Shown piece by piece: positions 4,175-63,992 of a stretch of 64,000 nucleotides of DNA. The translations under genes were made by a program, and so were the position numbers. The stretch is from Moniliella sp. 'wahieum' (Eukaryota). The DNA lies in the NCBI GenBank assembly GCA_003971905.1, contig RSEE01000164.1, positions 1 to 64,000 on the forward strand, written 5' to 3'. Positions within the stretch are counted from its first letter, which is position 1. Each line of letters starts with the position of its first letter. A model generated the notes under the pieces. The model was not told where the DNA came from, did no database searches, and saw only the letters and a program-made list of their open reading frames with translations.

Positions 4175-4833
4175 ATTCATACCATGATGGCGAACCCATC
4201 CTCCCACCCTCACTTCCGTTTGGCTTGTCCATACCATTCTCTCTCTGTCCTTACCACTCCTTTGGACCATCTTGTGTGATCCTCACCATGCGCTGTCCCT
4301 GTGTGTATTTTGGTGCACGCGAATAATGGAGAGGGATAAACCGCATATCTCTGTCTTACCGGACCAACCATCTCATCTGTTTGCGGCCCAGAATCTTCTT
4401 GCCCCAGTTCCCCGGATCGCTTTGGCTCCATCTTTCTCTTATCCCGGATACCATATACTTGTGTTTTCCCACCATCTTTTTCCCCCACATAAGTGCAAGG
4501 ATTCCATGGACCAATTTAAACCCATAGCTGAGCTGGGGACGTGACTCGTGACGCGTGACTGGTGCGCAGTCGCCAAAAGTGGCGCCGGTAGGGATGCGAT
4601 CTGCAGACATCGAACATGAACGTTTCAAACGCGTATGGCTGGCATGTTCTGGCCTGGCATTGCGCTGCTTTCAACTCCATGGGACCACCGGTGGGCGCAG
4701 GCAGGCCAAGAGCGCAGGAACCCAGCGCCAGAACGCGCCTCCTTCTCCGCCGCCACCACCACCGCCTAGTCTGCTTCCTCCCCCTCCCCCCCTCTTCCTC
4801 CTCTTCTTCCTCTTGCGTCCCTCTCATTCCGCC

Positions 4834-5796
4834 ATGTCCAACGCTGTGGCACGCACGGCCTCAAAGCAGAGCGCCCCCTCTACCACCAGTGCCGACCTCG
4901 CTTCGATTGACTCTTCCACCCTACCGTCCGAGGCGCAGGAGAATATATTTCTCTTTGTACCCAACCTCATTGGCTACTCTCGCGTTTTCCTTGCCCTCGG
5001 AAGTCTTTTCTTCATGGACACGCACCCCAAGTACTGCACTGTACTGTACTGTGTCTCGTGCCTGCTCGATGCCTTCGACGGCATGGCTGCCCGCGCCCTC
5101 AACCAATCGACCAAGTTTGGCGCTGTACTCGACATGATCACCGACCGGTGCGTATCTCCCTTCACCTTTCTTTTCCTACGTCTGTTGCAGATACCGGCAG
5201 TGATTGACCATAAGACATGTCACAGGTGTACCACATCGTGTTTGCTGTGCTTCCTCACCGCGGCGTGGCCCAACTACAAAATCTTGTTCCAGTTGCTCAT
5301 TGCGCTCGACTTCAGTAGCCACTACATCCACATGTACGCGGCTGTTTCGGCAGGCTCCGCGTCACACAAGAAGGTGTCCAAGGAGACAAGCAAGTGGCTG
5401 TGGTATTACTACCACAACACAAATGTGCTTTTCAGCGTCTGTGCTGCCAACGAGCTATTCTTTGTCGCACTCTACCTCATGAAGTCTTACACCACACCAT
5501 TGGGAATCCAGCCCGCGTGTCTGCTCGCGCCCCTGTTTGGGTTTGATCGGGCGCGCTCTTCTATGTGGGTTGCCGCGGCTCTCAAGGGTTCTCAAGGGCC
5601 ATGCATCCAAACTCTCCTCCGCGTCACCGCTCAACTTACCTGGCCCCAACTCCTGGGCGCCCTCACGTTCCCTGTGTGTGCCCTCAAGCAGGTGATCAAC
5701 GTGATCCAAATCACCAAGGCTTCCTCGGCTTTGGCCCAGGCTGATCGGGTGGCACGGTATGAGGCCAAGGTGGCGGCCGAAGCCAAATCGCAATAA
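4834..5796 (+). CDS. PIS1: Phosphatidylinositol synthase (CDP-diacylglycerol--inositol 3-phosphatidyltransferase)
   Basis: ENIFLFVPNLIGYSR and CDP-alcohol phosphotransferase motif LLDAFDGMAARALNQSTKFGAVLDMITDR. Intron 5148-5225 (GTGCGT..CAG) restores TDRCTT. ATG in gccATG context. Confidence 0.95.
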   Translation: MSNAVARTASKQSAPSTTSADLASIDSSTLPSEAQENIFLFVPNLIGYSRVFLALGSLFFMDTHPKYCTVLYCVSCLLDAFDGMAARALNQSTKFGAVLDMITDRCVSPFTFLFLRLLQIPAVIDHKTCHRCTTSCLLCFLTAAWPNYKILFQLLIALDFSSHYIHMYAAVSAGSASHKKVSKETSKWLWYYYHNTNVLFSVCAANELFFVALYLMKSYTTPLGIQPACLLAPLFGFDRARSSMWVAAALKGSQGPCIQTLLRVTAQLTWPQLLGALTFPVCALKQVINVIQITKASSALAQADRVARYEAKVAAEAKSQ

Positions 5797-6570
5797 GGGC
5801 CCTCCGCCCCATCCCGCACAGTTTGAACCGAAGCAAGTTCTCGCATCCATTTCGGCTCTTTTGTCTTGGCAAGCGATTATCCATTCCACTCGTTCTTCTG
5901 ATATTCCCATTACGAGTCCCCTGGCACGAGCTACGAATCACTTCCTTGTGACCCTGCCTACGCCCGCGTTTCTTGTTTACTGGTCCTAAGGTCTCGCACA
6001 ACCTGACTGGTCCAACCGGAATGCACGTCTTCCTCCTCCCAGCCCCCACTTTTCCGCCTCATCCCTAGGGCAGCTGCCTTGGCAGTTGTTCTGGCTGCTT
6101 TATCAAGGTCTCCAGCCTCGGTTCATCCCGATACTAGTCCTAGCTTTTTGTGTAGAAAGAGCATCCACCACATACTACAGCACTTCGAAAAAATGTACAC
6201 CCACGTTGGTACCTGAGGAATCAGCCTGTTTCCTGATTCCTCGCTAGTAATAGTCTCCTAACTAGTATCCAGCACCCACGGAAACCCCGGGTGACCGCTT
6301 ACTGTTTGGAACAGAGCGGACCAAAGCAAGCTGCAGACACCATGATAGCATTACACCACTCCAGATCGCCAAAATTTTGGAGGGTATGGACCATGAAAAG
6401 GCCGCAAGACGGGCGGGCACAACCAAACGTCTCGACCCGCAGATGGAGACAGCTGGCAAGGGCGTGGACGCACGGGAGGGGGGGCTCTGAGGAGAAATGG
6501 CATATGAAGGGGGCGGGCAACAGGAAGGGCGGGTATGCAGGGCACGGATGTTTGTCAGAGCAAAATCCAT

Positions 6571-7018
6571 TTAGTGACCGGCACGGCGCTGCTCAGCGAT
6601 CACGTTCTGCAGGGCCTCGACCTTGGCCTTAGCGCGCTTGAGGGTACCAAGACGCTTCTTCATGAACTTGCGAGCGCGCTTGTCCTGCACCACACTCTCG
6701 AGTCAGTACAAACTCATTGCCAGGGCAGAATTGGGTCCAGGACCAGGATTCGCCAAGCACATGGATGAACGAGGGAGAAACACGAACCTTGGAGTTACGG
6801 AGGAGCTCCATGGCCCGGCGTTCGTAGGGGGCAAAGCCAGCAACCTCACGGATGACGGACTTGACAATCAAGTTCCGCTGCGACGTGTGGCCCTTCATCG
6901 CAGCCGGGCGAGCGGGAACCACGCGGCGCTCGGTCTTGTGGCCACGGGCAATGCCCCAAGCAAGGCCGGAGCGCTCAACGGTGGACTTGTGGATGGGGTT
7001 GGACGAGTTGCGGACCAT
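6571..7018 (-). CDS. RPL36: 60S ribosomal protein L36 (eL36)
   Basis: [26 protein letters not shown] joined to [25 protein letters not shown] across intron 6787-6685 (GTTCGT..CAG). Spliced CDS 345 nt ending TAA. Confidence 0.97.
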
Positions 7019-7230: not shown

Positions 7231-7410
7231 TGAGCGGTGACGCGGTGACGGTCACCTGACCTGACCAGCTTCCAGCTTCAAGCTTCAAGCTTCAAGCTTC
7301 ACTAGTGAGGCCCTCAGGCCTCGTTCCCATTCGCTGATTGGTGGCCTAGTGTTGTTGAGCATCAAACTTGAACATTGAATGTTGTCTGGGGGACCGGTGA
7401 CCTCACCGGT
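7231..7410. repeat. Palindrome-heptamer tract in the RPL36/SYG1 divergent promoter
   Basis: (AGCTTCA)x4 at 7274-7301 runs into TCACTAGTGA. GTGAC, CTCAG and CCGGTGA units nearby. Confidence 0.85.
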
Positions 7411-7602
7411 ACCAGAGCCGGTTCGCGGCCCGGGGTTACACCGGTGATGCAGGTGATGGATGATGCGTTGCGCGTTACAGTCGATTGACGATCCCATCCT
7501 GCTGGCGGCTGGGCCCTTGGGCCACACTCCTCCACTTCTCTGCTACCCTCCGCCCCACGGCGTGCCCCCGTGCTCGACAGTGCCCCGCACACCGCCTCCG
7601 GG

Positions 7603-10552: not shown

Positions 10553-10948
10553 TCGCATCTTTCAGTGTTACACCCAAAGCCATCATGCAGTTCTATGTCT
10601 CCTTGTCCCTCTTCCGTGCTCATCCGTCGATTGGAGCTTGAGCGTACTATCTATGGTTTAAAAGCGGTCCTCCCTCCATTTTACTGTGCGTACTTAGTAT
10701 CTAGTCCATCTTAGAAACTTCTGGCGCCTATCGTAAGAGTGAGATCCGACCGATCACTACATCTGGGGCCCCCTAGATCGTCGTCCAAGGTCAGCGCGGT
10801 CAGCGTACTAGCTAGCATTCAAGAATTCAAGGATGACAGATGAGATCGACAGGACGTGCTCAGAACCCATCTGATCGAGCATTGCGAATCCCGTGAATTA
10901 CAAGCGAAAGGTCCAAAAAGATGTGATGGAGTGAGGGCATACTTGGAC

Positions 10949-14544: not shown

Positions 14545-14670
14545 CTGATGATGCATGATGCATGATGCATGATGGTGCATCGGTGACCGGTGACTATGGC
14601 TGCTAGAAAAGTGCGACCGAGTGACTCACTGATGACGCGATGATCGATGATCGATGACGCTTGACGTCAA
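14545..14670. repeat. Palindrome-heptamer tract in the INP5x/Zn2Cys6 divergent promoter
   Basis: (TGATGCA)x3 at 14549-14569, TGACCGGTGA, (TGATCGA)x2 at 14641-14654, TTGACGTCAA. Confidence 0.85.
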
Positions 14671-18228: not shown

Positions 18229-18302
18229 TTGAACGTTTAGCGTTTATCTGAAGTTCAACGTTCAACGTTCAATTGGAGAGCATTGAGATATTGAGACCTC
18301 AG
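18229..18302. repeat. Palindrome-heptamer tract upstream of the MFS gene
   Basis: (TCAACGT)x2+TCA at 18255-18271, then ATATTGA and CTCAG units. Confidence 0.75.
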
Positions 18303-23475: not shown

Positions 23476-24084
23476 ATTGACAGAGCTTAAGGCTGGGACA
23501 GGGGGAACGCTACGTCTAAACCGAACCGCTCATCTTGCGGGGGTTGTTTGAAAAGCGCGATTAAGGTCAAGGAACCAAGGGGATCACTATAGGATATCAG
23601 GACCCTCCGGCTCTCGTCATCCGGTCCCGTACCCTAGGTAGCGCGTGTGGACACGGATGAACGTGGTTGACATCCGAGCGAGGAACCATTTCCACTGAGA
23701 CTTGGTAGCCAACTCCTTCCAATGCGCAAACAACTTGACGCCTTTGCCGCGTCGTAGTATCCCGCGTATCCTCGCGTCGTCAAAACCAGGGGGAAAAAAC
23801 GTCTCTTGAGTGCGTCCCTGGTACTTGACGTTCTTGTCGCATTCTGCTTGTTCAAGCAGCAGAAGCAGTTCCTTCTCCCGGCGGTTCCAGAGGCGACGCA
23901 GTGCTCTCATGTACCACCCGCCGGTACGTACGCGCTCTGCGCCTCATGCGTTCCCATGTCGCGCAGCGTGTGGTCGACCTCCATTCCGGTTCCTCCCAGT
24001 GCTCCAGGCCCCATCACGCGGTAGTCGGTGCGCTGTGCCCTCGGTCCGTGCCTCGTCCCATCCTCGCCTCCACCATAGGTTCGT
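23476..24084 (-). mobile_element. Dispersed repeat copy A, degenerate unclassified element with a minus-strand ORF remnant
   Basis: About 600 bp alignable by eye to 38902-39524. Shared terminus ATTGACAGAGCTTAAGG. Confidence 0.75.
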
Positions 24085-24459: not shown

Positions 24460-25720
24460 TCAGCCTTCAACTCGATGAAGCTTGAAGCTTGAAGCTTGAA
24501 GAAAGCAACGGAGAGATAGCAGCTGTTTTTTCATTTCAATCTCGAGAAGAGACGGCCAAGGGTCCCGGTCCTCTCAAGGTACTTGGAGGGTTAAGCTTAA
24601 GCTAGCTTTAAGCCGGTTATTAAACGTTAAGTACTCACTGTGTACTGAGTTCAGTATTGAATATTGAGTCTCAGTACAGAGTTACTGTGATGCATGATGT
24701 TACACATTGACGCAAAAATAATGGATCATCGATCAATATGACCAATGGCGTGCTCACATGTCACTCATACGGGAGCACTGTAGCATCGCTGATGCGCTAA
24801 TCTTGTTCGATGTAGGGAAATGAATCGGATAAACGTTTAAACGTTAGACGCTAGATCATCGATCATGCATCATGCATCATGCACAGTGTCGTGTCAGATC
24901 AGACTGAGAATCAGAGTACTGACTGACAGGGTACCTGATCGAGTCCCCTGAAGGCCTGGCTTGAGCACCTGAGGCCTGAGCCTTGAGTATTCGCATGTCA
25001 CAGTGACGTGTCGCATCATGCATCCTCGAATCATTTTCATCCGCGAATACCATCGACACCAAGCTCTTCAAGATCAATATTCATGGGTATATTGGGCAAT
25101 TAACAATTGGAGATGGGTGAACATGGACGTACTTAACAAGGAGGTCGGTGTATTCAGCGCAGTGTCTCTTTGTCCCAGCCGTAAGCGCGTACGCGCACAA
25201 GCTCTGTAAATGATAATAAGGCGCAATTTAACCTAAAAGCCCTAAGGCTTAAGGGCCTAAGGCCAACCAACAGAGGGGGGGGTATGTATACCACAGGACC
25301 GTGTTGTTTTCAGCCTGGCTCAGGCCTTCCTCAGGTACCGGAGAGGAACGGCTGCCACGTGGCTGCAAGTGGATAAGATACGGGCCCAAGTAAGTAACAA
25401 GATTTCTTGGTCTGTGCGTGGATGCAGCGATAGTCGATAGTCGATAGTCGATAGCACAACCAGTGTGGCTTCTGGCTCAGCGATAGGGAACGGTGAGTAG
25501 CCTCATCATGCAACATTCATCATGCATCATGCGTCATGCATCATGCACGTCATGTGGGATCTGAGACGCAGGACAGCAATGTGTCACAGGCTCACCGCTC
25601 ACTGAGACGCGTGACATGTAACCAAGTGACGGCCATGCATCATGCATCATGCACTCTCCTTCTATGGCTCCATGGAGCATAGGGAACCCTGAGGCTCAAG
25701 TCGGAAATCATCAACGTTCA
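24460..25720. repeat. Long mosaic palindrome-heptamer tract
   Basis: (TGAAGCT)x3 at 24476, TGAATATTGA at 24658, (TCATGCA)x3 at 24863, TGAGGCCTGA at 24970, GGCCTAA units near 25240-25264, (TCGATAG)x3 at 25434, further TCATGCA runs at 25500-25650. Confidence 0.9.
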
Positions 25721-26711
25721 ACAGCACCATGTCAAGTTCGTTCCACCGGAATTGTTTTGCCACCTGGTCATCCGGCCATTGCATGACGACACGCGGGTCC
25801 TATATACGCCACCAAAAGACGGTCAACAAAAGAGATAATGGAGTAACTCTGGCAAACCTTTACCGAAGACGATCTGAAGAGTCATTTTACGGAGGGAGTG
25901 TGGTTCATCGATTCATCGCTCGAACCGGCTAAACCACGCTCAATCTTTGAATCCATGGCGCGCCACACATCCTATGGAAGTGGGTGACGGGATAGAACCA
26001 TAGGGACCCGAGCTGTTGGCGACTTCACTAGGTCCCCTAATTTTGGCCTTGCACGAGCAAAAATGCAGCACATGCACGCCGAATGAGCAACCCCGGCCTG
26101 CTAAGCGCAGCGATTCTTTGTACATGCTATGATTTTTTATTGCATAGACAACGAAAATTTGATCGGGCGCAATGCTTTGTTTTGGGAGACGAGGAACGAG
26201 ATGCGATCGAGATAGGCAAGAGAAAGCAAAGAACAGAAGAGACAATGCTCGTAAGATTGAAGGCAAATGCAGTCGTACTCAGCCGGTGCCGCGTAAGTCG
26301 TGCCGCCTACGCAGCACAGCTTCATGAGCAACACGACCGAGAGTTGGGAGGCAAAAAGCGATAATGCAAGCCGAGACGAGGGGGAAGACCCACACCGAAG
26401 AGCAAGGAGCCACAGCGGTGGGGCCAAGACGAAAAGAAGAAACAATACAGTTGCGGACATCAAAATAAGCGTACAAGGCCAAGACCGCAGGCATAACAGA
26501 GGGTTTGGCAAGAATAGTGCCTCTGCTGTTACAGGCCGATGGAAAGGAACCGTGCTCGACAAAGAAAACTCGGTGAACACGGTAGAAAAGAACAATCCGT
26601 GGTTGATGAGAGATGAGAGATGAGATCCTCGATGAAGGGAAATGGAAATGACGAGCAGGCCAAACTGACCCTGACGGGCTCAGCCTGAGCCATGTTCAAC
26701 CTGATCCATCA

Positions 26712-30039: not shown

Positions 30040-33020
30040 CTAATAGTGACTTACTATCTTCACTGGTCAGTACTCAGTGACTCGTGACGAATAATGACGA
30101 CTGGCGCTAGTGACATGGCCAGTGGAGCTAGTGGTTAGTGATTTTAGGGACTGCGACATGTCACTCTAGGAAGTGCTGAGCCGCAGGGGTTCTTCGACTC
30201 AGAGTACTCGGTCTGAGTTACTCTGGCCACAGGCCCCGGACTCTCAATTTCTCAAGCGCACTCTTCAGGGCCTCAGAAGGAGGCCCCAATATACTCACGC
30301 TTGAACGTTCTTCCACATTCAAGACTGAACTCATTTGCACTCAACGTCTCAACGTACTCAGTACTCAGTACTCAGTGAGTACTCCGTCCTGAGCCTCAGT
30401 ACTCGTATCGCAGTCACGAAGACGAGACTCGGTACTCCTACTCCGGGCTCAAAAGTACCCAACATACGCTCAAGGAACGTTCAACGTTCAACCCCGCATG
30501 CGCCTTCAAGCCGTGGGAAATGGGATGGATACACGTTGCATGCCCCAGCGCTTAGCGAGTACCAGCCCTTCAAGCGACGCAACACTCGGCTGACATTAAT
30601 GGCTGGCGCCGACATGTGCTGTGATATGCGGTACTCCAAGCTTCATACGCGCATAGGCTTCACAATGGCACATGTCACCGACTACGGCGTGGGGCCGCCT
30701 TCGGCTGCGTTCAAATTCCTGATTCCGATCTCAGATGTCTGGACTGCACTCTGGCCCCAGCTGGTGGCACTGCGCTGGTGCCAGGTATGCATGTGGCCAC
30801 AGAGGGCAGGGGACCCGTCCCAAACCCAAGGCGAAACACCAAGGGTCTGGAGTCTGGGGTCTGGGGACATGGGTGTCCGGGGTGGTCGTTGTGGTAGCTT
30901 GTGTGGTCTGCCGTCTGCCGCGGACGCTCGGGGCCGGCAGCCCGAAGGCTTAAACGCTTCGAGCTTCGGGACACAGCACCGCACCCTGAGGCCACTGGTC
31001 GCTGCTCACCGATCACCGGTCACCAGCCTCAGCCGGCGCCTCAGCTCAGCACTCCGCTCAGCAGCCCAGCACTCAAGGCGCTCAAGCTCAATGCTCCATA
31101 TCGATATTCAATGTTGGTACTTAGTGTACTTGGTTTTCCTACTTCGACAAACTAGTCACCGGTAGGTACGGTCATCCGGTCATCGATCATCGATCATCGA
31201 TCATCGAACAGGCCACAGGGTAGCTCTCTCATCGATGCTGCCTCTCAGGCTCATCGATTAGATCTTATAAGATTGGCGTCGAGTACACACTGAGGATCGA
31301 GGACTGTGTCTCAGTACCCTTGTCCTCCATATATCGATGGCGCAGCCAGGGGCACCGGCACCCGATCATCAATGAAATGTCAAATTCAAGCATTAATAGA
31401 TTGATTAATTGATTACTGGTCTAAACGTGATCCTGTACAGCCAGCATCATGGTATTTTGGGCAGCGAGCAAAGTAGGGGCAGAAGTGGTGGAACCGGGCC
31501 GCCATGCACAGGTATACCATCGTATGAAAGCGATATATGGTGTAGAGTTTCGGTCACAGTGTGTTCAAAAGTCATGATTATCTCGACGAGTTGCTCAGAT
31601 CTTCCCCTTGAGATCTGGCATTGGCATTGGACCAAAAGTCGTCTTCTTTTGCTCCTCCCCCACACGCGCCCTTCCCACGATCAGCCTATAGTCGGGATAA
31701 TCGATGGCCTCTTCGCACACAACCGTCCCATATACCACACCAGTGCTCCAAGCATTATGTGTTTAACGTTTACTGTGTGGCCTGCTTCCTATATGGTCTT
31801 ATATCTCTGTTGCCACCAGCCACCCAGCTCATCAATTTGTGGGGGGGAAGGATTGTGGGGTCCAGAAGCTGTGTGTGGTCCGAACTCCACGACAAGGGGC
31901 ACACGATAGTACACAAGTGAGCCACATGTGAGCGCAATCCTGTGGAAAATGCGTAATAATCGCGTAATCTCTGGGCGACACCTTGCTATCATTGAATCAT
32001 CCTGGTTCGCGATATTGGGCAGCCAACAATGCTTGTGAGGGGTCCACGGTACACCCTGTGTGTGGTACTCCCATTCCCGCCTTCCCTCGGAATATGCATT
32101 CCACACATGCCAAGCTCGCCTATGTTGCACGTTGCATGTCAAGATCAAGCAACAAAAGAGGTCGACTGCTGAGGCCAACACCCACAGTGTCTGGTCGGGA
32201 GCAGGTGGGAGTGGCTCTGACATGCTGGCCAAGCTATAAGCACTAGGCTTAGCGCCAAGCGCTAATGGCTAACGCTTTCGGCCTGGGCCAAGGCCTGCCA
32301 GAAGAAGGACTATTCTAAGACCAATCAAAGACCACCGCTCACCGCGCTCACCGGTCACCGGTCACCGTGTACTTTTTCGGATCGGCATGGGATATGGATC
32401 ACATAGATCATCGATCACACGTATCCGTTTTGCCTTCCATTAGCTTTTCTGGCAAAGGTCTCTTAAGTTCTGAAATCGGATTGTGCCAGGTTGGGCCAGT
32501 GTTGAATGTACGTAGGACGTTGAACGTTGACACGTTCTTAACGTTCAATGAGTCTGGTCCAGTAAAGTCAGCCAATAAATGTTGCGCCATAGAAGACGGT
32601 ACGCGTTAAGGGGCTTGTAACCGCACGCTACCGCACGTTGGCTACACGGAATACCCGGATCAGCCTCGCGTTCAGATCTCGGCAACATGTGAGCGCTGCG
32701 TCCTACTGCGCCTCAGGCCCTCCTCAGGCCTGAGCCTCACAGGCCTCAGCGACTGAAAGCTGAATCGCTGTGCCTGCGGCCATAATGTGTGGTGGTCGAT
32801 GGTCGGTGATCGATGAACGTGATGAACGTCTGAACGTTCTGAACGTTGAACTTCAACTATATGAACTGTTGAACGTTGCACGTTATCTGTGACATGTGAT
32901 ACGTGACAGGTGACATGCATGTGACAGGTGAGATACCTGTCACATGCACTCAGGCGTAGCGTGGCTGCGGAGTTTGTGACCATCTCGGTTCCATGGTGCA
33001 TGATGTGCGTGATGTATGAT
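30040..33020. repeat. Clustered palindrome-heptamer tracts upstream of the CBM21 gene
   Basis: (GTACTCA)x3 at 30354, AACGTTCAACGTTCAA at 30476, (TCATCGA)x4 at 31180, (TCACCGG)x2 at 32348, block mosaic at 32690-33020. Interrupted by non-repetitive stretches. Confidence 0.85.
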
Positions 33021-36000: not shown

Positions 36001-36156
36001 GCAGCCCGTAACTATAGGATACGAGAGAGCACTGGCCAAGAAACAGAGCAAAACGGCTATTCACACTGCAGGAAGCACACGAGCCCAAGTCAAAACTTGG
36101 TATGAACGCATATGGGGACGAGCGCGTGAAGAGGGGTAAAAGAGATGGAATGGATG

Positions 36157-36207
36157 TGAAATGAGATGAGATATGAGAAATTGAGATGAGATGAGATGAG
36201 ATGAGAT
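36157..36207. repeat. (TGAGA)n pentanucleotide microsatellite at the SIP5 3' end
   Basis: ttgagatgagatgagatgagatgagatt preceded by degenerate copies. Confidence 0.8.
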
Positions 36208-36220
36208 TCGTCGTGCCTCT

Positions 36221-38059: not shown

Positions 38060-38520
38060 CTCAACTGTCGAGAGGGAGGATGTCGAAATGAAGGGGAGCT
38101 GAGCTCAGCGCTCCGGCTGAGTGGCACCCTGATCTGGTGCTCAGCTTGCTTAGTGCTGGTTGTGGCCCGGCAATGTCAGCCAAGCGTGTCAGCTGACACA
38201 CTAAGGACTGAAGCTTGAAGCTCAGCCATGTCAACGTGTCCGCCGCACTCACCAAGGTGGGGGCGAGATCTCAGTCCGAGGCCTGAGCCTCAGGCCCCTC
38301 AGTGTGCTCAGCTGAGCCAACAGAGTGCGCTGAAGCTGAACAAATTCATTAAGCATTGAACGTTGAATATTGATGCGTGATTCAAGCGATTAATGATGAG
38401 ATCGATGATCGATGATCGATGATCAATGAAATTAATGATCGACTATTCCAGTTTCCAAATGCAATGTTCAATGCTCGAACACCGATCACCGATTGAATCA
38501 CCGGTCATCGAGGTCATCCC
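38060..38520. repeat. Palindrome-heptamer tract upstream of SIP5
   Basis: TGAAGCTTGAAGCT, GGCCTGA and CTCAG units, TGAACGTTGAATATTGA, (TCGATGA)x3 at 38402-38422, TCACCGGTCA. Confidence 0.88.
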
Positions 38521-38901: not shown

Positions 38902-39524
38902 ATTGACAGAGCTTAAGGCTGTTTTGGGATAGGGAAACGCTACGCTTAAACCGACCCGTTCTCATCTTACCTGTGTTGCTTGGTAGTGCCACACCCCTGT
39001 TAAGGAACCAGGGGAATCTCGCCAGAGGATATCAGGCCCCTCTGGTGTCCGCCATCTGGGGCCCATACCCAAGAAGCGCGTGTGGACACGGATGAACGTG
39101 GTAGACATCCCACTGAGCGAGGAACCATTTCCAACATTGAGAGTCAGTAGTCAAATCCTTCCAATGCGCAAGCATCGTTGCCCGCTGTCTTGGTGCCGTG
39201 GTATTAGTACTATCCCCGCCTCAGGGAAACGGCTCTTGAGTGCGTCCCTGCCAGTACTTGGCGTTCAATCTTGTCGCATTCGGTGCTTGTTCCAGCAGCC
39301 GATGAAGCAGCTCCTTCTCCCGGCGTTCCAAAGGCGTCGCGGTGCTCTCATGCACCACCCTGCGGTACGCGCTCTGCGCCTCCTGCGTTCCCGTGTCGTG
39401 CAGCGTGTGGTCCATCTCCATTCCAGATCCTCCGATTGCTCCCGGCCCCATCACGGGGGGTAGTCGGTGCGCAGTGCCCCCCTCCCGCGCCTCGACCCAT
39501 ACTCTTCCTCCACAGTAGGTTCGT
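38902..39524 (-). mobile_element. Dispersed repeat copy B (same family as 23476-24084)
   Basis: Same terminus and a homologous ORF remnant (VMGPGAIGGSGMEMDHTLHDTGTQEAQSAYRRVVHEST...MSTTFIRVHTR). Confidence 0.75.
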
Positions 39525-45389: not shown

Positions 45390-48300
45390 CATCATGCATC
45401 AGTCGACTAGCCAGTATCACTAATAGTCACTAGTCACTAGTCACTAGTCACTAGTCACTGTGACCAGGACCACTCCCTGTCACATGTAGTGCACTACTCG
45501 GGTGGCCCTGATACCTGAGACCGGACTGAGAGCTCAAGCTTTCAGGCTGAGCGGGCGCGCGGTCCCTGGTCTATCTGCTCGCGCTCCGCCGGCTGAGGGC
45601 GCTGAGGTCTGGCGCTCAGTCTGAGCGTTCATCGGCTCATCAACGTCATCAACCCATCCATGCATCATGCACATCATGGATCACCGATCATCGCGCTATC
45701 GCTCCCCGTTAAAACACGTTGTAACAAAATACGAACGTAAAACTAAACTAAACGTAAGGCGTAACATGCGTAGCGCGTAACGCGTAAATGTGGAAACGCC
45801 ATACATTCGTATTCATATCTAAGAGCTCAAATGCCACAGAAGTCACGAAGTCACCGGTCACATGTCGTAGGCATGCTGGCAGCTGGACGCTGGACGCTGG
45901 ACACTGGACGGGCTGGGCGAGAGCTTGACTAGTTGACTCGCGGTTGGTTAAACTCAGTTATTGGATCCTGGGTACTGCATTGCTAGGTCTGTGGGCGGTC
46001 GGGATATCTGCGTGTCAATGGCCAAGACCAATCGATGACCAGCACGGTGGCTGATGGCGCTGAGTGGCTGAGCGCTGAAGCTCTGGGTACCGATGTACTG
46101 ATGCATGATGACCAATGATTAATGATCTGGATAAATGTACAGAGTAAAACCGGTGCCCCAACCGGGCTGCTCCCAAGCTGAGCCAGCAGATGCAGAATGC
46201 CTCTTCCAGCTTGAAGCTTGAAGCTTGAAGCCTGAGGACTCGGTGCCCAATCGATGATCGATGAGCAATGGTCTAGATTCCATTTGGACCCTTGGATTGC
46301 AACAGCAAAAACGGTGGCTCCGAGGTACAACAGGGTGCAATGATCGGTGTTCAAATCGATCAGAGACGGTGGATACTTGAAGCTTTTGAATTGAATGGTT
46401 GAACGAGTTGAGCGTTTGAACCGGAGTCCGGCAGTGGGAGTCGACGGTGGCCGGTGGAAGCAGGTGGAGCGCGGAGCCCACATGGGGCTGGCAGAGGGTG
46501 AGCGTGAGCCTCAGCGCTGATGCGCTGACCAGGGCTTGAAGTGACGTTTGCCTTGCCTGCCGGTGCTGGCCCTCCCACACACGGGTGCCCAGCGCCCATC
46601 ACCGGCACCAAACGTCGAGCTGAGCGGCTCAGGGTGCGCACAAGCTGAGCTCAGCCTGAGCGCGTATCCACATCCGGCTTCCAGCATCCCGCGGATCCTA
46701 CGGCTAGGGAAGCCGGCAGGGCCGAGCAGAGAGGGAGTGCGGGGCAAGAGCAGGCTACAGTCTGCTATCACATGTGGCAAACAATGCAATCTCGGATGTG
46801 CCGGTGACGCGGTGACGTGACGCATGTGATCATGTGATATCGGTGCTGCTTCGGGCGGGGAACAAACAGATGCGAACAGCTGTGGGTAGTGCAGGGTAGT
46901 GGGTGGCGTCTGTGCACGCCAGTCCGGGCAGCGCCCACGGCCGCCAAGAAAGCCGCCTCCAAACCTCAAATCTGGATCGTCGCCCCCCGACCGGCCCGAC
47001 CCACGTCACCACGGCAATGAAGCAACAAGAGCCCGAGGCGCACAGCTATCGCGTATGTATATACGGTTGTCATTAATCATTTCTTCCTTCCACTTGTGGC
47101 GCCACACCGGTGTCTTCATGCGGTAGCCGGTAGCCCAAAAGGGCCCTTCCTTTTCCGGTGCATATTCCATCCTGTGGAGGCAGGAATATTCTCTAGCCTC
47201 TGTTGCTCATGTTCAATGCAATATACTGGCACCAACTGTCTGCTTTCCGCTTTTCTACACCCCACCATGCTACAACAGCAACTTCTATGAGCCACCAATA
47301 TCTTGGGTACAACATCAGGCGCTGAGTGGTAACGCGCGGTACGGGTCTTAGACCTGGTAACGCGCGGTAAGGGTCTTAGACCTGGTAACGCCGATGGGTA
47401 TAACCGGCGGTAAGGTCTCAGATTCAATATTCAATGGCCTCAAGGAAGAATTGCGTGGAGCGTAGAGCAAGTCATGTGGTGGTCATGGCACAGGAGAGAG
47501 AGAAGGATAGGAAGACTGGGAAGCAGCGAGAGAGCCTGGGTGCCCGCTTCCCAAAATGCCGCAGCAGAGGCCTGCCTGAGGCCAGTGAATGATGGCAAAG
47601 GCGTCTCTACGTCACGCGTCACGCGCGTCTGCGTCAGGCGTCATCACGTCATCGATCATCCGCATGCCATGCACGTCACGCGTCACAACGATTAATTACA
47701 TGTGACAGTGATGTGTACCGTTTGACGTGGTGTGGCGTTTGGTGCGTTGGGGATACGGGTAATTTGAAGACAAACTTTTATCTCAGAGCTTTTAGATACC
47801 AAGACAATAATTAATAATAGTGGATCATCGATCACCCATCATGCATCACGTTTCGTCCATGGCCTTACGGCCTTACCGGTTTGTGGCTCGCAGCCTTAGG
47901 TCTTAGATCTTACCGGTTACCGGTTACCGGTTACCCATTTCTGGTTTCCGGAGTATATCCAACGCTGTTGGTACTGTCACAGTCAACGTCAACGCGTCAA
48001 ACGGTTGCGTTGAACAGGAAGAGGCACCTGAAGGCACTAGCATGGAATACTGATCTATGTACTGGATATACCCTTTTAGCGGTCTGCTTGAGCGCTTAGC
48101 CTGAGCGCCCTGAGTGCATTCTTCTGGGCATACTCCTTCCTCTGGTTTGTACTTCGGGGTACAGTATAGTTGTCGGAGAGGCGAGCAAGGCAGGGGTCAT
48201 AATGGTGGTGATGCAATCAGAGGGAGGCCGACGCCCTGAGGCGCAAACAAGGAGGGATGGACCAGGCGAAATCATGTTCGTCGCGCGAGGACACCCGACT

Positions 48301-49700
48301 GGGGTAGCAGCTGTGCGTTCCGCGGCGGTCACGGTTCCCAGTTAGGCTATATAGTTAAGCCGGCTACGTCAAAACGTTAAACGTTAACAAAGCAGGTTCA
48401 ACGTTCAACGTGTTCGTCGTTTAACCTTCAGCACCTTATTGTAGAGCTCGCTGAACGCGCTGAGCGCGCTGAGCTGATCGATAAACTTTAGTCTTTGGTT
48501 ACCGGTTAGCGGTTAGCGGAGTTACCGCTGTTAGTGCCATGTTATGCATGGTGTCGGTTACCGTTTAATTACCCCTTAGCGCTTACCGTAAGCGCTTACC
48601 GCTTACCGCTTACCTATCACTTCTCGATAACAAACGGGAACGCAGGTGTGTACCAAAGACGTACACAACTGTGTGGCACAACTGTGACAGCACTCTCACT
48701 TAAGCCACCAGCAGCGCTCCAGCGTGGAACGGTGGCTGCGGTGGCGGCAGTGGTGGCGGTGGCCCAGCACAACAGGCTGGGGCGAAGCCCAGACCGGGCC
48801 GTAGCCCGATGGTCTCCTAGTAAACGCTAGTAACTAGTAACCGTGACTGGTCGGTCACTCGGTCAGCTCGGTCATCTCGGTCAGATCTCCGAAGTCAGAT
48901 CTCAGACTGAGAGGTCAGAGATCCCAGAACGTGAAGTACAGAGGCCTCAGAGGCCTGAGAGGCCTGAGGCCGTTGATGTTAAGACTTCGAGGTGTGACAT
49001 GTGAGGCGCGTGACGCGTGAATCTGAGAGGGCCTGAGGCTCAGCCGTCGCGCTCAGGTCGCGCTCAGAGCCTCAAGAGGAGCGCTGGCCATTAAATAGTT
49101 CGTCGAGCCCCTTCTCTGTGGGACAAAAAAATGAAAGGCTAGTGCATAGTGGATGGCATGATGCATGATTGCTGCCTTCCAGAGGTTTCTAGGATGTGGG
49201 CTGGGCTGGCGCGCTGCTGCGTGACGCGTGACGTTGAGACCCGACCGACCTCGGGCCGAGAGGTCCCTTCCGCCCCAGACATGTCGCACCTGTTTTTGTT
49301 TCCTCCGAGGCCCGAAGGGCTCGAAAAGGGACCCTCGCGTGCCTTGTCTTAGATCACTGTCCCGCTTACAGCCCGGCCGACCGGCTCCCCTTGGCGTGCC
49401 TGCACCCAACCGCGCCAGGCCACACCGCACTGCCACACCGTAACAACATCTGACGCGCTTTACGCTTCCACCAGCTAAATGATCCCATACACCACATGTC
49501 TCGCATGCGACACATATCAAGTTGCTCAATTTTTAGCGCATACTAGTTAGTTAGGTGTGACGTCACGCATCACGTTTGACGCGGTAACCGGTAACAGGTA
49601 ACCGTAAGCGCGCTAAGCGTTAAGCGTTAAACGTTAATCGTTTTATTAAGCAGTTGTCGTCATATGGCCCTTAGTCGTGAATCCGGTAATCGGCCTTCCT
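45390..49700. repeat. Very long mosaic palindrome-heptamer field upstream of the C2H2 gene
   Basis: (TAGTCAC)x5 at 45424, (CGCGTAA)x2 at 45774, (AGCTTGA)x3 at 46208, (TTACCGG)x3 at 47910, (ACGTTAA)x2 at 48374, (CTAGTAA)x2 at 48827, (CGCGTGA)x2 at 49007. Confidence 0.9.
47327..47391. repeat. 28-bp tandem repeat x2.3
   Basis: TGGTAACGCGCGGTA(C/A)GGGTCTTAGACC at 47327 and 47355, partial copy at 47383. Confidence 0.9.
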
Positions 49701-53321: not shown

Positions 53322-53885
53322 TGTAACGGTGTGGCCTCCCGGGCGATGACAACCTCGCCCGACGGGGGGCACAAAGGGGAGCCAGCCTCTGGCTCGTCAG
53401 GCAAAGCGACCAATCGTAATGTAACGGTGTGGCCTCCGGGCGATGACAACCTCGCCCGACGGGGGGGCACAAAGGGGAGCCAGCCCTCTGGCTCGTCAGG
53501 CAAGGGGACCAGTCGTAGGCCCGAAGCGCGCGAGCTTCGCACCAGAGAGACGTCCTCCCTACTGCCTTCCTAGCGATAGCGTTCCTAAGCTGAGTCCTGG
53601 AGAAGGCGGCGCTGAGGGTGGACGTAGGACAAGACGATTGGTCGCTTGCCTCCATGCATTCTTAGTACAGAGCGGGTCTTTATATAGGCAGGCAAAGGCC
53701 CGCAGGTTGTACAATAGGCAAGCGGCTAACTGGGTCTGTTGGAGACCACAGCGGCTGATAGCTCCGTCGATCCGCACGCGGTACTATCGGCGATCGAAAC
53801 CGATTAGAAGCCAAGAGCGAACGATAAGCAGCGGCGGCGCCAACGGAAATATTTCCGGTGGCTTGCTGCGCATCGCCCCGTGACA
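53322..53885 (-). mobile_element. Solo LTR (564 bp) with 5-bp TSD GTGAG and a duplicated 98-bp end
   Basis: TGTAACGG...CCGTGACA inverted ends. GTGAG at 53317-53321 and 53886-53890. TATATAAA on the minus strand at 53686-53679. Direct repeat at 53322-53419 and 53420-53517. Confidence 0.9.
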
Positions 53886-53890
53886 GTGAG

Positions 53891-54300
53891 ATCAGAGAGT
53901 GTTCAGTTGAACGTTGAGATCTGAGATCTGAGATCAGAGAGTTGAGATGTGCTATGCTGACATGGTGAGATATGGGTTTCTGATACCTGAGCTCTTGAGG
54001 GGCGGGAACAGAAAAGGCGCATGTCGATCATCGATCACATACATGTCACAGGGCAGGATAGGCACATGCAGGACACGCCCGCGTGATGGGGGGGGGGCAA
54101 ATATGGGCTGTCCAAGGCGGTGGGGATGGGCAATGCGGGGGGCGGAAGCCGAGGCGGAAGCATCACGGGCGATCGGCGTGAGGCGCTGGGCCTGCTGAGC
54201 TCAGCCTGTGATTAGGGTTACTTCTTACTCAGCCTCAGCGGCTCAGTGCTGCTCAGCTCAGCTGTCCCACACAGGGTGATCATCACGTGATCGGCTCAGG
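53891..54300. repeat. Palindrome-heptamer tract (continues left of the LTR at about 53050-53316)
   Basis: TGAACGTTGA, (TGAGATC)x3 at 53915-53935, TCGATCATCGATCA, CTGAG/CTCAG-rich run at 54195-54300. Confidence 0.85.
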
Positions 54301-57600: not shown

Positions 57601-59437
57601 GTCCCTCACACGCCTCAGTTACCGCCTCCTGCTGCCCGAAGCAGGCCGATGAACCCTCCTTTGGCTGCGCGTCCCGCAGCTGATTCTTCAACAAATGCGA
57701 CGTTGCGGTTGGACAAGGGGGACAAGGGGGACAAGGGGGACAAGGGGGACAGGGGGGACAAGGAGGACAAAAGGGACAACGACAGACCGTTGAGCTACAC
57801 AGTGGCCAATATAAGATCGGAGTTTCCTTGGGCCGTCTCAGCCCAGTTTGACTTGGGTTCTGACTCCACCGCTCGATCCGCCGCTGTCAGCCCTCTTCCA
57901 GAAGTAAACGTCAATAATGAAGGTACCTCTGCAAGCAGCAAGGGATCTCCGTCAGCACAGTCTGGCCCTGGATCGACGAGCGAGCCGGAACCTCGGGTGT
58001 GTTCGGCTGCCCAGCCGGACCGAGCTCCTGGGACGAACAAAGTAAGGAAGGACGTCAAAGACCAAGGTGCGCTCTCTTCTTCACCTTCCTCAGGGGGGAA
58101 GGCCGCTACCGCTTGTGCCCCAGAGGTAACCATCTCTCCTGCTACCCCCATCAAGGCTTGTGTCGCTCCGCGTAGTAGTGCAGACATGGTCCCTCTTCCT
58201 ACACCGACGTCTCCTCCTTCTGACTCAGACCCTTTGGTCAACCCAAGCCCCGATGGCAGAGGCGATGCGGGGACCCCCCAAATGAGCCGTCGGGCCGCGA
58301 AGGCAGCCGCCAAGCGAGCGGCCAAAGCCAAAAAGAGCCAAGCCAAGGCCGAGGCCGCAATGCTCAAACAACTCCATAAGGTGGACCGTATGGTCCGAGC
58401 ACACGATGCTAAGGCGGCCAAGAAGCAAGCCAAGTCGGCCAAATCGGCCCAGCGATCCAAGGCTCCTGCGACCGAGGGTATCACGGCGGCGCACAAACGG
58501 GCTGGAGAACCCAATCCTACCCTAAGTCTCGCCGTCGAACCGCTTTGGCCAAGCTACTCAAGATTCCTCTCAAAGACCATTCCAGTGCCCGGCCCAGCGT
58601 GCCCGCTAACCCTCCTCTTGCTGATGGGGAGAATCCTCTCCCCGGCAAATCTTCTCGGTCCCATCCCGTGATGGAACCAGGGATTGCTCAGCCGGGCCCC
58701 GGAAGATGGCGTCGGGTTGTCCCTCGGCGCGATCCCTGTCACGACGGGTTCCTAGTGCAGGGGAGGGACGGCGTTCCTTGCTCGTACCCACTCTTCTCGG
58801 TCCCGAAGTAGTATGCGTGGACGACCGTACCGCCGCCCTTCGGGACTAGCACCTTCTTTCTCTCTCATGGCCCCGCATCGCTCGCATGAAACAGAGGAGG
58901 ATGGATGGACGAATACCGACCCTTCGGACGCAGCCGACCAATCCACTTCTTCCGACCATCTGACTCTCTTCCCGGCTCGGCCGATTGGTCTTCCACCTCG
59001 GGGTTGGGACCCAGAAAAGCCCGAGCTACGCTAGGCATGTGGGCACGTCCCTTCCCCTTTCGACCGACGCTTTTGCCCCTTGCTCGTCCCCTTGCTGCTC
59101 TGACTCTGCACCGGAAGCAGCGTCTTCCGTAGTAGGACCGGCACTCGTCTCCGATCCAGGCTCCGACTCGCCCGCCCATACCCCCGCTGCCTCTCCTGTT
59201 GACTCGCACGAATCCCATCGGACCCTCGCTTCCACTGAGAGCAGCGCAACCAGCCTGTCTTCGCCCCCGTTGCACAGGGCCAGACGGCACCGTGCTCCCT
59301 GTCCGCTGCGCGACAGGAGGAGGACGATGTGCCTCGTTCCTCCCACCTCAACCTACACCACTCGACGCCGCACGCCGGCGCAAAAGGACCTTGATGCGTT
59401 TGTCTTCCCCCGTACCCGTACTTCCCTTACCTCGTGA
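54681..59437 (+). CDS. Large Pro/Ser-rich hypothetical protein, multiple frameshifts
   Basis: C-rich leader then gccATG at 54681. Chain of long + ORFs (503 and 601 aa pieces). Intron 56499-56546 (GTTCGT..ACTAAC..CAG). Lys/Ala-rich helix near 58280-58460. No domain recognised. Confidence 0.6.
57712..57780 (+). repeat. 9-bp coding repeat (GACAAGGGG)n encoding DKG
   Basis: DKGDKGDKGDKGDRGDKEDKRDN. Confidence 0.9.
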
Positions 59438-59670
59438 GGCCTGAAGCTGCGTGCTGCACACACCCTTCTGTGGATGTGGTATTGTTTCGACGCACCTTCG
59501 TTCCTCGACACAGTTTGCATGTGCATGCAGATGTACCGTCCCCACCCACTCGTTTGACATCCCCCCTCTCGTACCAAAGGACGAATCTGCTTCTCCGTTC
59601 GCCTGGGCCTCCTTGCTTGCATCCGCCATGGCAAGCCCCCTCTTGATAAAAAGCCTCCCGTTTCTCCCTT

Positions 59671-59721
59671 CCCAACTTCCCAACTTCCCAACTTCCCACT
59701 TTCTCAACTTTCCAACTTCCA
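59671..59721. repeat. 8-bp tandem repeat (CCCAACTT)n
   Basis: Three perfect and about three degenerate copies downstream of the large gene. Confidence 0.8.
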
Positions 59722-60488
59722 CCCCTGCATCGTTCCATCGTTCCCGTTCCCTAAACGTGCAAATAATGGCTTTGACATCTGCATTGTGGCCTCCCAACAA
59801 CACATGCCTGTTGTCTGTGCTCTGCTGTACTACTCGCGAGAGACCCCGGTTCCTTCGTTTCTCCAGCGCGGCCTTCTTCCTTCTTGTCTCCCATCCCCCC
59901 CACCACCCCCCTTGATCTTGTGCCCGTTTTGCTTCCTTACGAATCACACAAAGGGACTTTAGCTGCCTCTGGCCTCGGGCTTGGCTTCTGCTGCTGTTGG
60001 TGTCTCCGCCCCGCGGCCTCGCTGCGCCGCGCCAGCATGGAGCATGGAAGCGCTACAATCGAACGAACTGAATTCCAAGTCGCGTGTAAAAACTGTGTAG
60101 TTGAGGCTTCGCGTGCAGGTACGGTGTACGGGATACAGAGTCATGCAAGTCGTGCCGTTCAAGTAGCGGGGTTGTTGGCACGCAAGTCGGTCAGTAGGTA
60201 CATACATGGTCCAGCTGTCTGTAGTTTACCCCGGTGGGCGCCGTTTTTCGCGAGACGACGCACGCCATCGAATATTCAACGTTGAACGGCACTCCACTAT
60301 TAGGGGAGGGGTCGTGGGCGGAATGACACTGACAGGGCGGAACTGGCTGGTCGGATGCAATTTTTGGCAGAGGGAAGAGGGTGGAAAAAAAAGCCAACGG
60401 GTTAAGCCCAAAGTCAAACGCCAAACGCCAAACGCCAGTCAGTCCTCCGACCGTCGCCAGGCATCGCTTGTGCTCCTCCCTCATATCG

Positions 60489-63232: not shown

Positions 63233-63393
63233 AAGCGGCCACAATGCAATGCCCAATCACGATCTCTCCCACGCCCTTCTGGCGTCTGTATGTTGAGCCC
63301 ACGTAGGAGGAGCCTGTTGGGGGTGCGACACGTCTGAATCTGACCCGTAGGGGGGTGAATTTGAAACGGGCTCGGCAGGCACTCAAAAGAAAA

Positions 63394-63483
63394 TTCCCCG
63401 ACCGGGAGTCGAACCCGGGTCTTGACGGTTCCGAACCGTGTTCGTGAGAGCGCACACATCATAGCCGTTGGACCATCGGAGGA
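63394..63483 (-). tRNA. tRNA-Glu(CTC) with a 16-nt intron (63444-63429)
   Basis: A-box TGGTCCAACGG, anticodon loop CTCTCA, T-arm CCGGG-TTCGACT-CCCGG, downstream TTTTCTTTT terminator. Two extra T residues in stems. Confidence 0.85.
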
Positions 63484-63992
63484 TGTCGGAGAGGTATCTT
63501 AGGTCTTCAAGCTCACTTGTGGGTGCAGGGGGACTGCTAGGTTCGGGCATCTGCCGTCGGGTCAGTCGTCATTCTCGGTCGTCAGGCAGTGCTTTGCCAC
63601 CCGACGCATAGGCGCATGGGCTGTGTGGCGCGGCGGCACAGGGGCTGTGCACGTTCGGCGGGCGGCACAGCGCCCGTGTGCGCTGCCAGCTGGAGCATCG
63701 GCCGTCTTCGATGCAGCACGGGGGCAGTGCGGCTGGGGGCAAACTTTCAAGGCGCAGCGCGAGGGTGAAAATTTTAAAACGCGGCGGGTGCGCTGATTAA
63801 TGCATGATTCAAGCGTCTTTGAACAATCAGGCTCAGCCGCTCTGCCCGTCCCAGTCCAACCAACCTCAGCCGCCCCGACGCGTCGCCCGCGCCCACATCT
63901 CCTCTCTCCGGGCCGCTCCCCCCCTCCGCTCCATCGCCCCTCCCCTCGCCCCTCACATCGCCCCTCCGTCTCCGACGCACCCAGTCTCCGCC

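Follow-up and report, generated by a model that had tools for sequence, protein, structure and literature searches.

We asked what process wrote the short repeats that punctuate a stretch of DNA from Moniliella sp. 'wahieum' (GCA_003971905.1, contig RSEE01000164.1, positions 1-64,000, forward strand; this 64-kb stretch is hereafter the window). The initial annotation had described intergenic heptamers, in tandem, that share a grammar (a 4-bp palindrome plus a T-N-A triplet) rather than a sequence, and this periodicity is real: among periods of 1-15, period 7 alone stood out, with 16 perfect tandem runs of at least 3 units compared to 0-3 at each other period, and TRF returned period-7 rows by the dozen. 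Exact period-7 runs of 5, 6 and 7 matches numbered 106, 47 and 13, respectively, compared to 40.5, 9.8 and 3.0 under a Markov-2 model. The lag-7 autocorrelation predicted for TGA was likewise evident, at 76 vs 17 (Markov-2), and the other triplets behaved similarly, at 72 vs 18 for TCA, 18 vs 2 for TAA and 22 vs 3 for TTA; the peaks predicted at lags 14 and 21 were seen as well, smaller than that at lag 7, and TGA and TCA displayed an extra peak at lag 9.

The grammar was equally apparent in the repeated units. A T-N-A triplet, a 4-bp palindrome and the same T-N-A followed one another 106 times, compared to ~3 expected. Palindromic N4 between identical triplets, the excess anticipated by the initial annotation, was found at 41 vs 1.0 (Markov-2) for TGA, 48 vs 1.45 for TCA, 8 vs 0.2 for TAA and 9 vs 0.25 for TTA. 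Among the 36 perfect period-7 runs of at least 15 nt, 28 contained a 4-bp palindrome within the unit and 8 contained none; the unit was a palindrome plus TCA or TGA in 20 runs and a palindrome plus TTA or TAA in 3, the rule thus being kept in 23/36. Two arrays used the triplet TAG. The arrays, none of which is assigned a strand, include the following (sources in brackets):

7265..7301: (AGCT-TCA)x4, with two AGCT-TCC units before it (TRF and perfect-run list)
14548..14574: (TGCA-TGA), 27 nt, perfect, between divergent synaptojanin-like and Zn2Cys6 genes
14638..14657: (TCGA-TGA), 20 nt (perfect-run list)
18253..18272: (ACGT-TCA), 20 nt (perfect-run list)
24476..24501: (AGCT-TGA), 26 nt (perfect-run list)
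24862..24883: (TGCA-TCA), 22 nt (perfect-run list)
25428..25454: TCGA-TAG x3.9, which keeps the 5+2 rule with the exception that the triplet is TAG, not T-N-A
25504..25547: imperfect CATCATG x6.3, 83% matches (TRF)
26605..26625: GATGAGA x3, T-N-A-centred with no palindromic junction, of the plain 7-bp duplication class
30354..30376: (GTAC-TCA), 23 nt (perfect-run list)
31180..31207: (TCGA-TCA)x4, 28 nt, the first 21 nt being the seed of the metagenome control
32348..32367: (CCGG-TCA), 20 nt (perfect-run list)
38400..38429: (TCGA-TGA) x4.3 (TRF and perfect-run list)
45424..45459: (CTAG-TCA) x5.1, 36 nt, the longest perfect array (TRF and perfect-run list)
45882..45902: non-conforming GCTGGAC x3, with neither T-N-A nor palindrome
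46208..46235: (AGCT-TGA) x4 (TRF and perfect-run list)
47910..47935: (CCGG-TTA), 26 nt, a T-W-A variant (perfect-run list)
53915..53948: (GATC-TGA) x4.9, 81% matches (TRF and perfect-run list)
60415-60437: non-conforming CAAACGC, of the same kind as GCTGGAC x3

All 14 palindromic cores that had been named, with their positions, were found; six of them proved to be single events of 12-14 nt rather than arrays (GGCC at 24970, CGCG at 49007, CATG at 48995, GCGC at 46069, ATAT at 24658 and TTAA at 46116). With single events included, 15 of the 16 possible palindromes are used, and only AATT is missing. The cores are not a code. Each is a copy of whichever two bases flank T-N-A, plus two inverted bases, and in single events it is the event itself that creates the palindrome, since the opposite flank of T-N-A mismatches. 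The model case, identified in the filler test, lies at 25711..25722 on the plus strand (TCAAC GT TCAAC); its ACGT palindrome must be event-made because the upstream flank is 'ca', not 'gt'.

Most loci are lone 7-nt insertions of this kind, with arrays in the minority. In 34 of the 106 five-match runs the 2-nt filler was reverse-complementary to the two bases next to it, compared to 3.6/39.9 expected, while four-match runs displayed no comparable excess (9/229 vs 4.4/150 expected). The starting triplet was T-N-A in 45 of 75 isolated events (TCA 22, TGA 16, TTA 4 and TAA 3), and N, scored among 79, was C in 42, G in 28, T in 6 and A in 3, and hence G or C in 70/79. An apparent extension of the target logo (A at -6 and T at +6, with T at -8 likewise enriched) was rejected as target recognition, for it is really the neighbouring unit in phase.

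We then tabulated junctions by two parameters, taking X as the 7-mer centred on T-N-A and comparing real counts with the Markov mean. X+2P+X[2:] occurred 120 times (0.6 expected), X+2P+X, in which both 7-mers are complete (+9), 12 times (0.00), X+2P+X[1:] 13 times (0.00), X+1P+X 10 times (0.05) and X+3P+X[2:] 5 times (0.15). Thus, what is duplicated is a 7-bp unit with N at its centre (nnTNAnn), and the commonest scar is the left copy, 2 palindromic nt and the right copy minus 2 nt, for a net gain of 7; this +7 class is dominant, and the minor +6, +8 and +9 classes all exceed expectation. Seven-nt repeats at period 9 were T-N-A-centred with P-type filler in 11/38 loci. These longer scars, with one compound patch that contains two of them, are:

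7443..7458, plus strand: +9 scar with two full 7-mers, GGTGATG CA GGTGATG (junction table)
10789..10805, plus strand: +9 scar, GGTCAGC GC GGTCAGC (junction table)
32812..32931, no strand: compound patch with the +9 events GATGAAC GT GATGAAC and TCTGAAC GT TCTGAAC, followed by imperfect TGAACGT and TGTGACA arrays
38503..38518, plus strand: +9 scar, GGTCATC GA GGTCATC (junction table)
45663..45678, plus strand: +9 scar, CATCATG CA CATCATG (junction table)
48456..48474, plus strand: iterated +9 scar, GCTGAGC GC GCTGAGC (TRF period-9 array, 48444-48474)

Plain 7-bp duplications lacking a palindrome occupied 4 positions, all within one array, and because they are this rare, simple fill-in of a staggered cut fails to explain the pattern. 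Duplication of 5 bp (TNAyz) with 2 P nucleotides was ruled out, as the +9 and +8 classes retain the whole 7-mer and the symmetry axis of T-N-A is N rather than the middle of the 5-mer; duplication of the 3-bp T-N-A would, on reasoning, be unable to yield the observed filler. Array excess was absent at periods 5, 6 and 8, and a fixed 7-bp duplication with compensating gain or loss at the joint therefore fits.

In all, the T-N-A-centred footprint classes comprise 92 event loci within 4540..63840 (no strand assigned), an overall density of ~1.4 loci per kb in the 64-kb window. They concentrate at 24.4-25.8 kb, 30-34 kb and 44-50 kb, with 33 within 46-50 kb. It had been claimed that none falls in recognised exons. 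The support for this claim is an ORF proxy, by which 80/92 loci lie outside stop-to-stop ORFs of at least 200 aa, these ORFs making up 48% of the window; most of the 12 loci inside them sit at the edge of the ORF or in an ORF lacking a Pfam match. The window also holds one paralogous pair (600 bp, ~76% identity) and one 98-bp tandem duplication.

We infer that the events are probably footprints left by the excision of cut-and-paste DNA transposons, of a family absent from the window, a reading to which we assign a probability of about 0.65. An element of this kind would insert at nnT-N-Ann (N mostly G or C), duplicating 7 bp centred on N. Upon excision, both flanks would be sealed as symmetric (even) hairpins, which host nucleases would open ~2 nt beyond the tip to give two 4-nt 3' overhangs. 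Direct ligation of one strand would leave the left copy, 2 inverted (P) nucleotides and the right copy minus 2 nt, a joint that would always be net +7 and read T-N-A y z z' y' T-N-A y z; joining the opposite strand instead would leave the mirror form. Fresh T-N-A sites on both strands of each scar would allow repeat visits to stack units in phase, perhaps with the aid of slippage, and selection would purge frameshifting scars from coding DNA. Features expected of excision footprints are present: two copies of the target duplication around the scar (the 12 full-7-mer pairs vs 0.00), filler composed of inverted flank bases, or P nucleotides (the 34/106 five-match runs vs 3.6/39.9), and joints of varied P length with small losses (+6, +8 and +9).

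Known systems resemble these scars in part. As in RAG V(D)J coding joints, Transib and Muta1, an inverted copy of the last flank bases stands at the joint, and the palindrome is even, as expected with a nick exactly at the element border. Artemis opens hairpins 2 nt from the tip, and the two P nucleotides here fit an Artemis-like opening at that distance. Target duplications are 5 bp in Transib and 8-10 bp in MULEs; in contrast, the duplication here is 7 bp, and the scars further differ from RAG, Transib and MULE products in their genome-scale density, in being stacked in arrays and in that no element was found in the window. hAT elements duplicate 8 bp, not the 7 bp seen here. Kyakuja/KDZ elements carry a KDZ transposase and 5'-CA..TG-3' termini, and the junction table agrees with their 7-bp duplication; no Kyakuja or hAT7 element or transposase was found in the window. 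The target triplet of PIF/Harbinger, which duplicates a 3-bp TWA, resembles T-N-A; we rejected this superfamily because the duplicated unit is 7 bp rather than 3 bp and N is mostly G or C (70/79). Galileo and other P-superfamily elements also make 7-bp duplications, as here, and have a palindromic target consensus, but they are insect elements, and P excision is not known to use flank hairpins. Taken together, geometry would lead one to expect the pattern from even-hairpin excision (of the RAG/Transib or MULE type), not from the odd hairpins of hAT.

Published footprints allow a closer comparison. hAT, Transib, MULE and RAG enzymes make flank hairpins that host enzymes open, and footprints remain (PMC5499845). 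The hairpin of Muta1, a MULE, is 43+43 nt, and its excision in yeast is >90% precise (PMC5499845). P nucleotides are present in yeast Ac/Ds footprints, and in C. albicans 28 different footprints were obtained among 128 Ac/Ds scars (PMC5873905). Ac/Ds and hAT scars, interpreted by the Coen hairpin model, are like those described here in that both copies of the duplication survive and the joint shows short palindromic additions and minor losses, but the joint here is far more uniform than in the experimental Ac/Ds scars (PMC5873905). Moreover, hAT palindromes centre on the complement of the element-adjacent base and are thus odd (PMC5873905), whereas those here are even: the dominant scars retain z and gain z', which by our reasoning would not be derivable from the hAT geometry. 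An odd-type class, inspected by eye, had 7 matches compared to 0.45 expected, 5 of which also fit mirror even events. Within basidiomycetes, Kyakuja and hAT7 DNA transposons make 7-bp duplications, as here, and the hAT7 group with this duplication occurs in rust fungi (PMC12730594); no report of the target motif, excision chemistry or footprints of either was found in the text searched. The Cryptococcus elements T1 (insertion sites without a motif; PMC9942834) and CNIRT6 (3 bp), CNEST (TA) and KDZ1-3 (4-8 bp; PMC12810828) do not fit by insertion motif or duplication length.

A search of the window for the element itself was negative. A scan of 109 of the 189 ORFs of at least 110 aa turned up no transposase domain; no TIR element with a 3-9-bp duplication was found; T-N-A-centred 7-mer pairs enclosing inverted ends gave 0 matches; and the candidate end motif CTCACTG was not enriched (10 vs 11.4 expected). 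Scanning metagenomes with the UTP15 C-terminus brought up no relative, the sequence index searched contained no look-alike stretch, and the article text searched offered no genome-wide description of such scars. The search for relatives in a protein collection did identify two proteins 82-85% identical. Against the footprint reading stand this negative search, the uniformity of the joint, array lengths that depart from pure iteration, the 8/36 perfect runs that are palindrome-free, the two arrays with TAG and the density of ~1.4 loci per kb, which demands very many insertion-excision cycles.

That no element was seen in 64 kb despite 92 event loci, together with the extreme uniformity of the joint and its strict dyad symmetry about N, lends some weight to a host nuclease or domesticated transposase acting with no mobile element, such that T-N-A breaks with a 7-nt stagger are capped as hairpins and end joining writes the unit. 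We nonetheless consider this unlikely. Two full 7-mers (12 vs 0.00) require either a duplication made by strand transfer or the filling-in of both ends; the latter by itself would leave plain duplications, which are rare; we know of no enzyme that both fills in and hairpins ends; and no candidate gene was seen among the scanned window ORFs. That a host or domesticated hairpin-forming enzyme repeatedly opens T-N-A in accessible non-coding DNA, writing 7-nt units with no mobile element, strikes us as likewise unlikely.

Array lengths raise the question of replication errors, with quasi-palindrome template switching making the unit and ordinary slippage expanding it. Of 20 perfect runs with at least 12 matched positions, only 2 match the 5+7k residue, none of them at 12, so that pure iteration is broken and slippage, mutation or other steps must contribute; slippage fits these lengths better than strict iteration, and near-self-complementary units could form hairpins in replication. 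However, the first event starts from only 5-7 nt, and 5 nt are too few to fold back on themselves, which rules out template switching as its origin, and slippage yields neither inverted filler nor a T-N-A requirement. Slippage should also be indifferent to unit symmetry and affect several periods, whereas enrichment is at period 7 only, 23/36 runs are rule-bound and single events far outnumber arrays. Finally, 119 metagenome loci (397,163 nt) bearing a (TCATCGA)3 array held 7 further events compared to 2.7 expected, while the same count gave 71 loci in the 64-kb window; DNA elsewhere that has this array lacks the grammar. We regard this explanation as improbable.

The initial annotation had offered two interpretations, fold-back synthesis or TGA/TCA half-sites for a polymerising DNA-binding protein. 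Its grammar holds and the former pointed the right way, since the opening of a DNA hairpin leaves just such inverted filler. The latter, a functional intergenic code of phased half-sites, is unsupported and in our estimation very improbable, regular 7-bp phasing and the position of events in non-coding DNA, some of it between divergent genes, notwithstanding: a protein-binding array should conserve a recognition core, but the core here is unselected, set by the flank in 15/16 forms; most loci hold a single unit; the +6, +8 and +9 joints break phase and make sense as repair variants, not binding sites; and, on ORF strands alone, the 24.4-25.8 kb patch apparently separates the 3' ends of a convergent gene pair. 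The Ustilago maydis heptamer arrays suggested as relatives returned nothing in a literature search. A sequencing or assembly artefact is scarcely credible, for the structure is templated by the flank, confined to non-ORF DNA and spread over many different sequences, and we know of no basecaller error that produces such flank-templated insertions.

If the footprint reading is true, the repair of hairpin breaks has left in this genome a natural record of a great many events, from which one could read the point of hairpin opening, the strand ligated and the frequency of base loss. Tandem repeats would be born from excision scars rather than slippage, and scars would attract scars because each makes new target sites. 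Standard microsatellite surveys stop at 6-nt units, and 7-nt units would escape them entirely. Smut-related fungi should, on this reading, harbour a highly active element that has so far escaped recognition, one with RAG/Transib-like even-hairpin chemistry and a 7-bp target centred on T-N-A. Much gene-adjacent non-coding DNA would then be recent transposon-written sequence, which bears on promoter evolution; were the host-enzyme version true instead, the fungus would possess a programmed, self-propagating activity that writes DNA, building new spacer and promoter sequence.

The period-7 pattern reported in the initial annotation holds. Dozens of period-7 rows appear in the TRF listing, and 16 perfect tandem runs of at least 3 units occur at period 7, compared to 0-3 at every other period from 1 to 15. 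As that annotation had anticipated, lag-7 autocorrelation is elevated relative to Markov sequence for both TGA (76 vs 17) and TCA (72 vs 18), and palindromic tetramers are in marked excess between them (41 vs 1.0 for TGA; 48 vs 1.45 for TCA). Tetramers flanked by identical copies of the target triplet, T-N-A, numbered 106 when palindromic, against ~3 in second-order Markov sequence, with the repeat extending on one or both sides in 87 of these 106. All 14 cores previously assigned coordinates were located, although six of them are single events rather than tandem arrays; if single events are included, 15 of the 16 possible palindromic cores are found between identical T-N-A copies. A 4-bp palindrome is present in 28 of the 36 perfect period-7 runs of at least 15 nt, combined with TCA/TGA in 20 and with TTA/TAA in 3.

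Single insertions, rather than arrays, are the basic events. At period 7, runs matched at exactly 5, 6 or 7 positions numbered 106, 47 and 13, respectively (40.5, 9.8 and 3.0 expected from Markov sequence), ratios that are consistent with a five-match event plus chance extension. In 34 of the 106 five-match runs (3.6 of 39.9 expected), the 2-nt filler reverse-complements the two bases next to it; four-match runs displayed no inverted-filler excess. Isolated events start at TCA, TGA, TTA or TAA in 45 of 75 cases. A model single event is the following:

25711-25722: atca TCAAC GT TCAAC agca

GT does not precede its first TCA, so the event itself created the ACGT core, using the AC already there. 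The palindrome is made from the local flank; nearly every core therefore occurs, and a 'code' is unneeded.

Junctions were counted as X, the inverted last dL bases of X, and X without its first dR bases, where X is the 7-mer pqTNAyz centred on N and dL and dR range from 0 to 4.

Junction classes (dL,dR): count in the window, Markov mean and net length change in nt
(2,2): 120; 0.6; +7
(2,0): 12; 0.00; +9
(2,1): 13; 0.00; +8
(1,0): 10; 0.05; +8
(3,2): 5; 0.15; +8
(3,1): 3; 0; +9

Both full 7-mers are retained around the filler in the (2,0) class (e.g. GGTGATG CA GGTGATG at 7443), of 38 loci that repeat 7 nt at period 9, 11 centre on T-N-A and have inverted filler of this type, and TGA and TCA each show a lag-9 autocorrelation peak. 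The duplicated unit is thus 7 bp centred on N, and the common '5+2' scar (5 repeated plus 2 inverted nt) is a left copy, two inverted bases and a right copy minus two bases. We rejected a model of 5 duplicated bp with two inverted bases, which would place T-N-A at one end of the duplication, an odd position for a symmetric enzyme. A (TGAGA)n microsatellite at 36154-36207 (period 5, ~10 units) inflates the count of T-N-A 5-bp duplications without filler. Because plain 7-bp duplication with no palindrome is rare (a single array contains all 4 positions), staggered-cut fill-in is insufficient and a hairpin-like step is needed. Across 79 loci, N was C in 42, G in 28, T in 6 and A in 3. The central base of the new palindrome (+3 from N) was G or C at 63 of the 79, compared to 46 at the mirror position, which suggests that the filler-donating flank, or the mode of its hairpin opening, depends on tip sequence.

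We interpret the scars as excision footprints of a cut-and-paste DNA transposon with a 7-bp target duplication and even hairpins, and put the probability of this reading at roughly 0.65. The element would insert, duplicating 7 bp; excision would turn both flanks into hairpins, and opening of both two bases past the tip would leave two opposed 4-nt 3' overhangs. Top-strand ligation would yield ...TNAyz z'y' TNAyz... and bottom-strand ligation ...pqTNA q'p' pqTNA... (primes denote complementary bases), both +7 and mirror images of one another; mirror-image forms were found when both strands were scanned, as the model has it. With T complementary to A, opening at 3 nt would lead to the identical product, while unequal opening would generate the +6, +8 and +9 classes. 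No enrichment was found at periods 5, 6 or 8, and the opening-and-ligation model explains why period 7 alone is enriched. Its symmetry also does away with the asymmetry of '5+2'.

The scar palindromes are even, with z and z' both present, and this speaks against hAT chemistry. The hAT footprints described in PMC5873905 have as their centre the complement of the base adjoining the element, an odd geometry that cannot give the observed product unless the flank is further constrained. One odd-type class examined by eye had 7 matches vs 0.45 expected, 5 of the 7 being also readable as mirror even events. Even hairpins are formed by RAG and Transib. An even hairpin of 43+43 nt is described for the MULE Muta1 (PMC5499845), and basidiomycete DNA transposons described with 7-bp duplications include Kyakuja in Laccaria and hAT7 in rusts (PMC12730594); our literature search found no report of footprints for Kyakuja or hAT7. 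Laboratory scars of Ac/Ds have much less uniform joints than those in the window.

Several observations count against the transposon reading, namely the palindrome missing from 8 of the 36 runs, TAG as the triplet in two arrays, and the uniformity of the joint. Moreover, no element or inverted-end pair with duplication was found within the 64-kb window, nor any transposase domain in the 109 ORFs scanned. A hairpin-forming enzyme, host-encoded or domesticated, that acts with no mobile element would make sense of the missing element and of the joint's uniformity; two full 7-mers would be harder to explain, and we consider it unlikely. Array lengths, too, depart from what iteration alone would give (among the 20 perfect runs matched at 12 or more positions, 2 show 5+7k matches and none shows 12), so slippage or decay must act as well; replication template switching with slippage as the entire explanation is nevertheless quite improbable, since it cannot begin from 5-7 nt and yields no inverted filler. 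The protein-binding code initially proposed, with a polymerising protein on the heptamers, is very doubtful, as cores are dictated by the flank and variant joints break phase. An artefact is scarcely credible given flank templating of the filler and avoidance of ORFs.

With ORFs of at least 200 aa (48% of the window) as a proxy for coding DNA, 80 of the 92 event loci fall outside this fraction and the other 12 are chiefly at the edges of ORFs or in ones that match no family; 3 of the 12 belong to in-frame classes (6621, 17589 and 37094; +6, +6 and +9, respectively), too few to test coding tolerance. Events cluster at 24.4-25.8, 30-34 and 44-50 kb (33 loci between 46 and 50 kb), and none was found in ORF-poor 40-44 and 50-52 kb. 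Other repeats in the window are as follows:

23476-24084 and 38902-39524: paralogous pair of ~600 bp, 76% identity, 15.4 kb apart, without Pfam match, probably two copies of one coding segment
47327-47391: 28-bp unit x2.3, 97% identity, in the densest scar field; unit contains GGTAAC/GGTAAG
53322-53517: tandem duplication of ~98 bp, 94% identity, in ORF-poor DNA
57711-57779: 9-nt array GGACAAGGG x7.7, within ORF-dense, G+C-rich sequence; no relation to the T-N-A rule
59668-59720: 8-nt array CTTCCCAA x6.6, within ORF-dense, G+C-rich sequence; no relation to the T-N-A rule

At ~56% G+C, the window is fungal and encodes a Zn2Cys6 factor, an SPX-EXS protein, a synaptojanin-like phosphatase, an MFS transporter, UTP15 and a CBM21 protein. 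Named proteins of Tilletiaria, Pseudozyma, Thecaphora, Moesziomyces, Ustilago and Testicularia share 56-60% identity with the UTP15 C-terminus, which places the organism in or near Ustilaginomycotina; the protein collection searched with this C-terminus contained no close named relative. The unnamed proteins P0008 and P0009, both from assemblies of public reads, are 82-85% identical to it, showing that close relatives have already been sequenced, whose DNA could polarise events. A metagenome scan with the UTP15 C-terminus and a search for look-alike stretches in the scan index found no related DNA.

No description of a genome-wide pattern of this kind was found in the text of the open-access literature. 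New here are a junction spectrum in two parameters, from which the duplication is set at 7 bp around N, a symmetric model of opening and ligation, the even-vs-odd test against hAT chemistry and an external control. For the latter, public metagenome contigs were scanned for a 21-nt array taken from the window, yielding 119 loci (397,163 nt). These contained 7 further events with other cores (2.7 expected), whereas the same counting gave 71 loci in the 64-kb window. The grammar is thus a trait of this genome and does not simply accompany arrays of this kind wherever they occur.
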